Positions 30,666 through 54,111 of a stretch of DNA of 64,000 nucleotides are shown one piece after another. Position 1 is the stretch's first letter. Each line of letters begins with the position of its first letter. The DNA comes from Deltaproteobacteria bacterium (lineage in GTDB: Bacteria > UBA10199 > SBBF01): NCBI GenBank assembly GCA_016183175.1, contig JACPFC010000026.1, forward strand, positions 41,907-105,906, in the 5' to 3' direction. The position numbers were made by a program, and so were the translations under genes. The notes under the pieces were generated by a model that was given only the letters and a program-made list of their open reading frames with translations, did not search any database and was not told where the DNA came from.

Positions 30666-31055
30666 TTAAGAAAGGGTTTGAAGCCAGTTGGCCTTCAGGA
30701 GATTCATGTCCATGGTAGCCAGGGGGATATCGTAGACAAGGGATGTGGCCGCCAAAAAGCGGTCGGCGGGGTCCTGGTGGGGGAGATCGACCTCGCGGCT
30801 TTTAATGGCGACCTCGGTGTTTAGGGGGGCCTCATGCAGAGGCGCTTGTTCCAGGCACCTGCGCACCCACCTGACCGGGTCGGTATTAACGCCAAATTTC
30901 CCCTTTTGGATCAAAATGATTGTTTCCCAAATTGAAATGGGGGAAAGCCAGAGATCTTCGGTGTGATGATCGAGGGTGTTACGCAAGGAGGCCGGCATGT
31001 TTGGAGAGGTCGACACATACCAAAGCCAGATATGCGTATCGAGGAGAATTTTCAT
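30666..31055 (-). CDS. vapC: Type II toxin VapC (PIN domain)
   Basis: N-terminus MKILLDTHIWLWY is a typical PIN/VapC. The start at Met7 of ORF 30666..31073 abuts the antitoxin stop. Confidence 0.8.
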   Translation of the reverse strand: MKILLDTHIWLWYVSTSPNMPASLRNTLDHHTEDLWLSPISIWETIILIQKGKFGVNTDPVRWVRRCLEQAPLHEAPLNTEVAIKSREVDLPHQDPADRFLAATSLVYDIPLATMDMNLLKANWLQTLS

Positions 31056-31291
31056 TCCTTGAATACTTCCCAATCATCTGTTCCCAAAGGGCTGACAATA
31101 TCGCCAATGAATGTGACACTATCTTTCATGCACCCGTACGAGGATCTCTTGACAGGAGGTTTTGGAGGAGGGGCGACCATGGCAATCGGAACCCCCTTTT
31201 TTGTGACAACCAAAGACTCTCCCGTATTCTTCACTCGTTCCAATAACTTAAGGCATGTAGCCTTAAATTGAGAGATCGCAATGGTTTCCAT
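31052..31291 (-). CDS. Type II antitoxin, Phd/YefM family
   Basis: 79 aa, ISQFKATCLKLLERVKNTGESLVVTKKGVPIAMV, directly upstream of vapC. Confidence 0.75.
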   Translation of the reverse strand: METIAISQFKATCLKLLERVKNTGESLVVTKKGVPIAMVAPPPKPPVKRSSYGCMKDSVTFIGDIVSPLGTDDWEVFKE

Positions 31292-31304
31292 TTAATAGTA
31301 GATT

Positions 31305-31320
31305 ACCATGGTCAATGACT
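31305..31320. promoter_or_regulatory. Perfect palindrome TGACTATAGTCA in the TA promoter region (likely antitoxin operator)
   Basis: Sequence ggtcaatgactatagtcaacactgtcatg, immediately upstream of the Phd-VapC module. Confidence 0.4.
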
Positions 31321-31333
31321 ATAGTCAACACTG

Positions 31334-31840
31334 TCATGCGACCTTCAGTTTTTCCACCTCTGTCCAATGTACCGTGGCGTGCATTTCGTAGTTGATCAGT
31401 TTCAAAAGGACCTGCACCCGCCCACAGGCGGGAACCGGTTTTTCGATGATTCCGATCAGTTCTTTAAGCATCCCTTTCCGCACCCGAATCCGGTCGCCCC
31501 TCTTTAAAAATGTCTGCCGTTCGATGATCCCGTTGTCATTGGCGTGGGAGCGGATGGTCTGGATAATCTCATCCGACATCGGGACCGGCCTGTTTTCGAA
31601 CGTGATCACTTTGTTGACGCCGCGCGTGTATTTGACGAGATGGAAATTCCGGTCCTCGCCGAAGTCGGTGTGAACGAACAGATAAGAGGGGAAGAGGGGG
31701 GCGGTCCGGAAAAAGGAGGTTGTCGACCGGTACATCAGGTCTTTGATGACGGGATAAAAAGTTTCAAATCCCCCCTGTTTGAGGAGTCGGCAGACATCGT
31801 TTTCGCGCCGGGGTTTGGCCTGGACGACATACCATTTCAT
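31334..31840 (-). CDS. NusG-family transcription antiterminator paralogue (RfaH/UpxY/LoaP-like)
   Basis: 168 aa. NGN domain KWYVVQAKPRRENDVCRLLKQGGFETFYP...PLFPSYLFV and C-terminal KOW (GDRIRVRKGMLKELIGII). Confidence 0.75.
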   Translation of the reverse strand: MKWYVVQAKPRRENDVCRLLKQGGFETFYPVIKDLMYRSTTSFFRTAPLFPSYLFVHTDFGEDRNFHLVKYTRGVNKVITFENRPVPMSDEIIQTIRSHANDNGIIERQTFLKRGDRIRVRKGMLKELIGIIEKPVPACGRVQVLLKLINYEMHATVHWTEVEKLKVA

Positions 31841-31842
31841 AT

Positions 31843-52657: not shown

Positions 52658-52701
52658 GTCCCTTGACAATCCTCAATTTTATGTACTAACATTGGTATAA
52701 C

Positions 52702-52929
52702 ATGGAAACCGTTAAACCGGTCAGCAAAATCGGCAACAGTTACGGAATCATTATTCCCTCCGGTATGCTTAAAGAAATGGGACTGAAAGGCAAAAATAAA
52801 GTCCGCCTGGTAAGCGGCGGAGGTTTTATCCAGATCGAACCGGCGGAAGGGCGCGAAGACAAAATCATGAAGGCCGCGGCCAAATACGTCAAAAAATACC
52901 GCCTCGATTTCCGGAAACTGGCCCGTTAA
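52702..52929 (+). CDS. Type II antitoxin, AbrB/MazE (SpoVT) fold, partner of Doc
   Basis: 75 aa, VSKIGNSYGIIIPSGMLKEMGL. Confidence 0.7.
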   Translation: METVKPVSKIGNSYGIIIPSGMLKEMGLKGKNKVRLVSGGGFIQIEPAEGREDKIMKAAAKYVKKYRLDFRKLAR

Positions 52930-52938
52930 TAAATCCCC

Positions 52939-53361
52939 ATGATACCGGTCACCTATCTCACAGCCGAAGAGATTCTGGCTTTGCACGAAATTTCCATCAA
53001 CGAGTTCGGGGGATCTCGCGGCATCCGTGATGTGGGATTGCTGGAATCGGCCGCTTATCAGCCCCGGCAAGGTTTTGGCGGTGTTGAGCTTTATCCCGAA
53101 ATCCGGGATAAGGCCTCGGCCCTTGGCTATTCCATCTCTGAAAATCAGCCCTTTATCGACGGCAACAAGAGGACTGCCGCCTTAAGCATGCTGGTATTCC
53201 TGGATATCAATGGCTATCAGGTTTCGGTTCCCAGGGGGGCCATCCATCAAATCATGGTGAAAGTGGCCAACAAGAGGTGCTCCCGGCAAGAATTGGCTGA
53301 CTGGTTGAAGAAAAACTCCAAACCGGTTAAGGGTTCCCGCCGAGCGCCGACCGAAGGGTGA
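52939..53361 (+). CDS. doc: Doc (death-on-curing) / Fic family toxin
   Basis: The Fic/Doc motif QPFIDGNKRTAALS. Confidence 0.8.
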   Translation: MIPVTYLTAEEILALHEISINEFGGSRGIRDVGLLESAAYQPRQGFGGVELYPEIRDKASALGYSISENQPFIDGNKRTAALSMLVFLDINGYQVSVPRGAIHQIMVKVANKRCSRQELADWLKKNSKPVKGSRRAPTEG

Positions 53362-53453
53362 CAGGGCAGAGGGATCATGACATTGCACAGGTTTCAGCCG
53401 CCCCATCGGCCCGGTCATCAATGATGGTCCGGTAATAGCGGAAGGGTCGATTT

Positions 53454-53858
53454 TCAGGCCAACAGCCGGCTTATTTTAAGCGGCGCGATTTTTCGATGCG
53501 CCGTTTCGTCGAACGTCAGCCAGATCCCCTTGAGCATTTTGGCCAGAGCGACATAGGAGGCGTCGTAACCGGACAGCCCCATCCGTTGATACTTTCGCGT
53601 CAGATCAAAAAGTTCCCCGGTCATCGAAAAACGCCGGAGGGCCAGGACAAGCACCTGGTCCATCAGTTTCAACTGGCCTTCATTGGGGACGGGAACAAGC
53701 CGGTTGAAGGCATTGGCCAGTTCAAAATAAAAAAGCTCGGGGACGGCGTGAGTTTGGGGGGATTCGAGGATGTTTTGAAGGATTTCCAGCGCCGATTCGC
53801 GCCCTTTTTCCTCGACAAACCATTTGATGGCCACCGAGGCGTCAATGATTGGAACCAT
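53454..53858 (-). CDS. vapC: Type II toxin VapC (PIN domain)
   Basis: MVPIIDASVAIKWFVEE... PIN N-terminus. Confidence 0.75.
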   Translation of the reverse strand: MVPIIDASVAIKWFVEEKGRESALEILQNILESPQTHAVPELFYFELANAFNRLVPVPNEGQLKLMDQVLVLALRRFSMTGELFDLTRKYQRMGLSGYDASYVALAKMLKGIWLTFDETAHRKIAPLKISRLLA

Positions 53859-54111
53859 AACGGATCTCGCGCAGGACTTTCAGGGAGTCGACAGGAGAGC
53901 GGGTGGCCGACAACCGGGCCAGCTTGAGAATTTCGTCCCTTTTTTCTTTTTCCCGGTAGTCGATAAAACGTTCCTTGAACGCTTTCAGGGAAAGCAGTAC
54001 GGCAACCGGCGCCCTTCCTTTTTCAATCAAAAGGGGTTCGTCCTTCTTCTTCAGCCGCCTTAAAATCTTCCCGAACGACTGGCGGATTTGAAGGGCGTTG
54101 ACCGTATCCAT
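53842..54111 (-). CDS. Type II antitoxin, Phd/YefM family
   Basis: 89 aa, overlaps the vapC start. Its Phd-like N-terminus is LIEKGRAPVAVLLSLKAF. Confidence 0.65.
   Translation of the reverse strand: MDTVNALQIRQSFGKILRRLKKKDEPLLIEKGRAPVAVLLSLKAFKERFIDYREKEKRDEILKLARLSATRSPVDSLKVLREIRYGSNH

Follow-up and report, generated by a model that had tools for sequence, protein, structure and literature searches.

Five type II toxin-antitoxin operons within 24 kb of a deltaproteobacterial contig: probable separate gain at permissive gene junctions

The window analysed here, a stretch of 64,000 nucleotides from a Deltaproteobacteria bacterium (GTDB lineage UBA10199; SBBF01; contig JACPFC010000026.1, positions 41,907 to 105,906), contains five type II toxin-antitoxin (TA) operons, TA1 to TA5, between its positions 30,666 and 54,111. 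The toxins are four PIN-domain proteins of the VapC type and one Doc, and each toxin gene is preceded by an antitoxin gene of the Phd, ribbon-helix-helix (RHH)-like or AbrB type. We consider it likely, with a probability of about 0.8, that the five are independent and unrelated operons which were gained separately at permissive junctions, by recurrent capture and turnover, and not as one island. Relatives hold either no TA module or other TA modules at the same spots, which points to gene-by-gene insertion at hotspots and not to one island or an integron. The intergenic sites involved would be of two kinds, both in a conserved backbone: one lies 3' of the gene of a NusG paralogue (TA1), and the other comprises the junctions flanking p1516, the gene of a 1516-aa protein between ribD and ribE (TA2 and TA3 on one side, TA4 and TA5 on the other).

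Results

Families were assigned by Pfam and NCBIfam profile searches, and matches to PDB entries were added for some of the proteins. A sequence-only reading of the window had proposed five TA modules within 24 kb, and this was borne out, with Pfam or NCBIfam domains at all the positions where the modules had been placed. The start codons of two toxin genes were refined, that of TA2 to the ATG at 46723 (not the GTG at 46591) and that of TA1 to the ATG at 31055. The NCBI annotation already names nine of the ten proteins as TA parts or domain families, the exception being the TA2 antitoxin, which is called hypothetical. Together they make up 10 of the 26 consecutive NCBI proteins MBI2339389-414, and the gene map of the whole 64 kb shows no further small-gene pair. 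All ten are singletons at 90 % identity; the modules are ordinary, new members of known families.

The PIN domain is present in the toxins of TA1, TA2, TA3 and TA5 (Pfam E-values 1.6e-9 to 2.6e-17, all above the cutoff). Judged by eye from the translations alone, each VapC appears to have acidic residues at all four expected PIN positions, for example LLDTH, SIWE, DPADR and TMD in the TA1 toxin. Antitoxin and toxin genes overlap by 4 nt in TA1, TA2 and TA3, each time as an ATGA stop/start, and by 17 nt in TA5. The four top sigma-70-like sites of the 42.5-54.4 kb region are found directly 5' of TA2, TA3, TA4 and TA5, and repeats or palindromes overlap them. The four VapCs have no detectable similarity to one another and are therefore not local duplicates. 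The order TA4-TA5-ribE was recovered in independent Logan assemblies from two samples at 99.7-99.97 % identity, and is thus not an assembly artefact. A crude post-hoc simulation with 48 junctions gave a p value of about 6e-4 for four out of five random insertions falling into a pair of neighbouring ones.

TA1 lies on the minus strand, where the gene order is UDP-glucose dehydrogenase (UGDH), the RfaH/LoaP-like NusG paralogue, TA1, g29283 and a MopE/FG-GAP protein. Its antitoxin is a Phd/YefM protein of 79 aa (31052..31291, minus strand; TIGR01552 above cutoff, Pfam PhdYeFM 4e-6, below cutoff) and its toxin a VapC of 129 aa (30666..31055, minus strand; Pfam PIN 8e-13), the start codon of which (ATG at 31055) shares 4 nt with the antitoxin stop. 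A palindrome (31295-31322) is located immediately 5' of the antitoxin gene. In the nearest relative at this site, the metagenome locus L177 (83 % identity in the NusG paralogue), the same place is taken by a TA1 orthologue, with 81 % identity in the antitoxin and 75 % in the toxin, values that resemble those of the neighbouring genes. Loci L174-176 (NusG paralogue 79 %) have an empty site without any TA module 3' of the NusG paralogue, and in L178 (61 %) AbiEii is found at the TA1 site. Judging from these identities, TA1 appears to have been inherited from an ancestor common to the nearest relatives. Near this site, the insert of L178 (6645-7630) consists of AbiEii and an 88-aa gene 3' of NusG, and L177 has an extra DUF4258/DUF2283 pair (543-1015) between UGDH and NusG, upstream of NusG.

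The other four modules lie in the riboflavin gene region. On the plus strand the genes for acyl carrier protein (ACP), rpiB, glyA and nrdR lead to ribD, which is followed by p947, p263, TA2, TA3, p1516, TA4, TA5 (its genes on the minus strand) and ribE. After ribE come ribBA, ribH, nusB, a gene for an M17_N-only protein, genes for an extracytoplasmic function (ECF) sigma factor and an anti-sigma factor, and pnp. The neighbours of the TA modules are housekeeping genes. A RibE search of genome contigs gave nothing above 47 % identity among the matches listed, and thus no sister genomes; the relatives described here are metagenome loci, named with the identity of their RibBA to that of the window. 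In 22 of 26 such loci ribD and ribE are adjacent, so that the content of the 11.6-kb gap between them in the window is derived. L092 (RibBA 74 %) has ribD and ribE 100 nt apart with no TA module, in the backbone ChaN-YceD-ACP-rpiB-glyA-nrdR-ribD-ribE-ribBA-ribH-nusB-M17N-ECF-antisigma. In L087 (77 %) the ribD|ribE gap holds a gene for 835 aa together with a homologue of p1516 (4659-9941), and no TA module. The contigs of L088 (78 %; homologue at 1-1579) and L179 (79 %; 1-1311) begin within a p1516 homologue, which is directly followed by ribE, again with no TA module. That of L083 (94 %) also begins within a p1516 homologue (1-3602), followed by an 866-aa gene, MazE-Doc and ribE, without TA5. 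As p1516 is common to these four relatives at the same junction and the TA content varies, the gap is best described as a mosaic to which the TA modules are later additions.

p1516 (48107..52657, plus strand) encodes a giant protein, conserved in this lineage, of a type that ranges from 1516 to 1760 aa. A PlsC-type acyltransferase domain (Pfam Acyltransferase 8.6e-6) is the sole recognisable domain, and the NCBIfam acyltransferase matches are weak and below cutoff. Neither an exact look-up nor a scan of metagenome contigs gave a match to p1516. From its distribution in the loci above, it appears to be an older, vertically inherited resident of the gap, between the TA2/TA3 and the TA4/TA5 sites. 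The genes p947 and p263 (42774-46411) occupy the place of the unrelated 835-aa gene in L087. Pfam, NCBIfam and PADLOC gave no match for either, and none of the relatives' loci has a homologue, not even when profiles were compared. A diverged orthology of p947 with the 835- and 866-aa genes of L087 and L083 was considered and rejected, as no relationship was found by BLASTP or hhalign. A more distant group of loci (L096, L099, L100, L105 and L108) has an unrelated subtilase (Peptidase_S8) lipoprotein of 860-960 aa in the ribD|ribE gap, which indicates that this junction has been occupied independently more than once. Other observations from this region are a GNAT gene with a gene of 82 aa between ribD and ribE in L085 (7426-8147; a TA-like candidate) and an 83-aa RHH-like gene with a PIN gene between ribE and ribBA in L100 (6925-7580). 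At or near the two kinds of site, the relatives thus have other TA types: AbiE, another Doc lineage, RHH-PIN and DUF4258/DUF2283.

TA2 begins with a promoter-like site and a pair of 15-nt direct repeats, a candidate operator (46456..46497, plus strand; TTGACA-17-TATTAT, 11/12 matches); the repeats, ATTTGGAATAWWTAT, are spaced by 21 nt. The antitoxin (76 aa; 46496..46726, plus strand) is RHH/VapB-like, with a sub-threshold ParD_like match (2.3e-4) and no match in a PDB search. The call leans on position, size and the 4-nt overlap with the PIN gene, and is the weakest assignment of the ten. The toxin is a VapC of 139 aa (46723..47142, plus strand; Pfam PIN 1.5e-12; TIGR00028 81 bits, above cutoff), which weakly matches Mycobacterium tuberculosis VapC43 (PDB 7vwo). 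TA3 follows with a promoter-like site (47332..47359, plus strand; TTGACA-16-TACAAT, 11/12 matches), the first hexamer of which is overlapped by a palindrome (47322-47348), an AbrB/SpoVT antitoxin of 71 aa (47398..47613, plus strand; TIGR01439 3e-8, above cutoff) and a VapC of 122 aa (47610..47978, plus strand; Pfam PIN 2.6e-17) joined to the antitoxin gene by the ATGA overlap.

TA3 is flanked by a 54-nt direct repeat, the 5' copy at 47168..47220 and the 3' copy at 47986..48039, both on the plus strand. The copies are identical at 50 of 54 positions and include a stretch of 37 nt that is 100 % identical; 0 such matches are expected by chance. The repeat corresponds to the upstream half of GCAAC-N16-CGATAA, a motif that resembles a promoter. 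The 3' copy lies within an intact motif 5' of p1516, and the 5' copy has the GCAAC part without CGATAA, which is retained only in the copy adjoining p1516. The 31-nt core of the repeat was not found in the relatives' loci. TA2, TA3 and TA5 are absent from every relative recovered.

TA4 is preceded by a promoter region (52658..52701, plus strand; TTGACA-18-TAACAT) that is conserved with the relative L083/L084; its DNA identity to L084 is 91 % over 44 nt compared to ~75 % for the flanking housekeeping genes. The antitoxin is an AbrB/MazE protein of 75 aa (52702..52929, plus strand; Pfam MazE_antitoxin 9.5e-8, above cutoff; TIGR02609 doc_partner, below cutoff), and such a partner recurs beside Doc in the homologous loci L083, L170 and L172. 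The toxin, a Doc of 140 aa (52939..53361, plus strand; Pfam Fic 4.8e-17; DOC_P1, TIGR01550, above cutoff), belongs to a glutamine-variant clade (ENQPFIDGNKR). The histidine of the motif HxFx(D/N)(A/G)NKR is absent, the sequence reading QPFIDGNKR, and Q70 takes the position of the catalytic His in the alignment with P1 Doc (PDB 3k33). The variant is shared by 48 of the 122 closest Doc homologues, and the residue two positions upstream changes in step from Lys to Glu, the clade having ISENQPF[IL]DGNKRTA instead of L[IV]KNHPFIDGNKRTA. This group has already been described in silico as Doc clade D2 (Khater & Mohanty 2015, PMC4454073). The activity of TA4 Doc may not equal that of P1 Doc.

The closest homologues of TA4 Doc (62-66 % identity) are found in unrelated contexts, aminotransferase|acyl-CoA dehydrogenase and pyrG|rpoN. 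The Doc of L083 is 50 % identical and falls in a different subclade of a neighbour-joining tree. When TA4 of the window is compared to L083, the final 33 shared nucleotides of the Doc gene match at 32 of 33 positions, and the interior is 40-60 % identical. On the simplest reading of these alignments, the interior would have been replaced by recombination. The conserved ends are not conserved at the nucleotide level in the unrelated Doc loci L170 and L172, so they are peculiar to the pair of window and L083 and do not characterise cassettes of the family as a whole. A Doc search of plasmids returned 673 records, all below 60 % identity, which indicates no close mobile relative. The TA4 site itself appears to have been inherited from an ancestor common to the nearest relatives (L083).

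TA5, on the minus strand, has a Phd/YefM antitoxin of 89 aa (53842..54111; Pfam PhdYeFM 2.8e-9, above cutoff), the gene of which overlaps by 17 nt that of a VapC of 134 aa (53454..53858; Pfam PIN 1.6e-9). Its promoter-like site with three 12-nt-spaced repeats is at 54116..54157 (TTGACG-18-TACACT at 54147-54118). TA5 is absent from L083, L087, L088 and L179. It is located exactly at the place that in L083 is taken by the Doc stop codon and the ribosome-binding site of ribE, and as a consequence the Doc of the window is 8 codons longer than that of L083. On reading the sequence, no remnant of the Doc 3' end was found beside ribE, as a target duplication by TA5 would leave. In the window a distance of 11.6 kb now separates ribE from ribD, and ribE and TA5 are divergently oriented. 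Before ribE (54112-54219) neither a sigma-70-like site on the plus strand nor a clear Shine-Dalgarno sequence is present.

The spacing of the motif GCAAC-N16-CGATAA is ECF-sigma-like. The window has three occurrences of it, compared to 0.01 expected: at 30610-30635 (minus strand) 5' of g29283, at 42698-42723 (plus strand) 5' of p947 and at 48024-48049 (plus strand) 5' of p1516. All three genes encode large proteins, g29283 and p947 without family match and p1516 with the acyltransferase domain only. In relatives the motif is found in the equivalent place in L174 (699-724 and 3770-3795), L175 (815-840), L176 (585-610), L177 (2290-2315) and L178 (7689-7714). It adjoins the TA1, AbiE and p1516 sites, and part of it is duplicated around TA3.

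The GC content is 0.50-0.56 compared to 0.554 for the window, and both GC and GC content at third codon positions (GC3) are host-like. No tRNA and no Rfam RNA family, including the FMN riboswitch, was found in the window. Neither the neighbouring genes nor the 25 best-matching families in the left 26 kb include an integrase or a transposase. That left part (1-26600) is a polysaccharide cluster, which comprises three NeuB-family genes and genes for CMP-sugar cytidylyltransferases, a DegT aminotransferase, a formyltransferase, a sulfotransferase and an APS kinase, a content that suggests a modified nonulosonic-acid glycan as its product. On the other side of the modules, the 177-aa protein encoded 3' of nusB (57145-57678) is the N-terminal domain of M17 leucyl aminopeptidase alone; it is kept at the position following nusB in 80 metagenome loci, with 27-56 % identity to the window protein. 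The ECF sigma/anti-sigma pair is at 57679-59253.

Discussion

The order of events in the riboflavin region would have been as follows. From an ancestral state with adjacent ribD and ribE, p1516 would have been the first arrival and would now be inherited vertically. An AbrB-Doc module would have come next, at the p1516|ribE junction in the ancestor common with L083, and its interior would afterwards have been replaced by recombination or have diverged very fast. TA5 would have followed at a later time, with the Doc stop codon as its exact point of insertion. The insertion of TA3 would have taken place in the promoter region of p1516, leaving the 54-nt direct repeat. From what is known of these families, antitoxin and toxin would be co-translated from one small operon, and the antitoxin would both neutralise the toxin and repress the operon at the repeats that overlap the promoter. 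On loss of the labile antitoxin, VapC would cut tRNA or rRNA, or Doc would modify EF-Tu, and translation would stop.

The sequence-only reading had ascribed to 42.6-54.2 kb an accessory, horizontally acquired character. The accessory part of this stands, as the TA content is absent or different in relatives, and the same TA genes are not found at the same positions throughout: L087, L088, L179 and L092 have no TA module at the rib junction, and L174-176 none 3' of the NusG paralogue. What does not stand is the single recent block, a horizontally acquired island that brought p947, p263, p1516 and four TA modules together. TA modules are usual island cargo, ribD directly adjoins ribE in L092 and in 22 of the 26 loci, and p947 and p263 have no homologue in the relatives' loci, all of which would suit such an island. 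However, p1516 is found at the same junction in four relatives with RibBA 77-94 % identical and differing TA content, and the TA1 and TA4 sites appear ancestral. In addition, GC and GC3 match the host, no tRNA, integrase or transposase was found, and boundary repeats were not found, TA3 alone being bracketed. We therefore regard one island as unlikely. The opposite view, an old and vertically fixed arrangement in which the clustering reflects retention and not mobility, could draw on the orthologous TA1 of L177 with its neighbour-like identities, on the TA4 site and flanks common to the window and L083, and on the host-like composition without near-identical copies elsewhere. The absence of TA2, TA3 and TA5 from all recovered relatives, the empty sites in L174-176, L087, L088 and L179 and the different TA types at the same sites make it very unlikely.

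The modules are small and closely spaced, and TA cassettes are frequent in chromosomal superintegrons; an integron-like array of promoterless cassettes, captured at attC by an integrase, had been proposed. It is most improbable here: no integrase family was detected, the intergenic regions share no imperfect-palindrome, attC-like element, the modules differ in orientation, a strong promoter-like site belongs to each of TA2-TA5, and a conserved 4.5-kb gene lies in the middle of the array. A defence island had been proposed too, and the modules could jointly act against phages through abortive infection. TA systems are able to defend against phage, Doc matches PADLOC candidate families (PDC-S23 and others), and L178 has an AbiE module at the TA1 site. 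On the other hand, no established defence system was recognised nearby, p947, p263, p1516, g29283 and the four VapCs have no PADLOC match, and the neighbours are housekeeping genes, which leaves this explanation rather unlikely. It is possible, if doubtful, that both sites are lineage-wide TA capture hotspots that work without an integrase, by exchange via short conserved sequences, with interiors swapped by homologous recombination and ends fixed. The sequences proposed for this, the GCAAC-N16-CGATAA motif together with the near-identical ends of AbrB-Doc, are a similarly doubtful pair of candidates.

Separate gain at permissive junctions is thus the reading that we prefer, and the modules appear to have been gained independently, none with signs of recent transfer. 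Several points weigh against it. The ten singletons at 90 % identity and the host-like GC mean that nothing indicates recent transfer. The local enrichment of TA modules is uncalibrated against the genome-wide TA density of the organism. The relatives are few and are fragmentary metagenome contigs, and the TA2/TA3 site is comparable in one relative only, L087. TA functions are predictions from homology; the assignment of the TA2 antitoxin is weak, and the activity of TA4 Doc, without the catalytic histidine, may differ or be lost. The Doc neighbour-joining tree is of short proteins and without bootstrap support, and the Docs of L083 and the window may be orthologous and fast-diverged rather than replaced. 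TA1 gave no promoter match of its own in the sigma-70-like scan and may be transcribed by read-through from the NusG paralogue.

TA1, TA2, TA3 and TA5 resemble the VapBC systems of M. tuberculosis in being antitoxin-first two-gene operons with PIN toxins, promoter-proximal repeats and 4-nt overlaps, and the TA2 toxin matches the M. tuberculosis PIN subfamily TIGR00028 and, weakly, VapC43. They differ from known VapBC in that every protein of the modules is a singleton at 90 % identity and the TA2 antitoxin is weakly recognisable. Phd-Doc of phage P1 has a toxin that is a Fic-fold kinase phosphorylating EF-Tu. The TA4 toxin shares with P1 Doc the single-domain fold, the xPFxDGNKR motif and PDB matches (3k33, 3dd7 and 9vzc), whereas it has Gln in place of the catalytic His and Glu in place of the Lys two positions upstream, and its partner is AbrB/MazE and not Phd. 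As in TA-rich islands and superintegron arrays, unrelated TA modules are crowded and their presence varies between relatives. Unlike in those, no integrase, attC, tRNA or compositional signal was found, and the modules are dispersed singly or in pairs among conserved genes. Some of the modules were apparently inherited from an ancestor.

The finding is routine in that it concerns well-known families. Its added value is a natural example of TA modules accumulating junction by junction, with different TA types turning over at one site across relatives. Two physical traces of this remain, the direct repeat around TA3 and the conserved ends of TA4 with a replaced or diverged interior. The locus is also a further chromosomal example of the Q-variant Doc clade, and could help in asking whether Doc needs its histidine.

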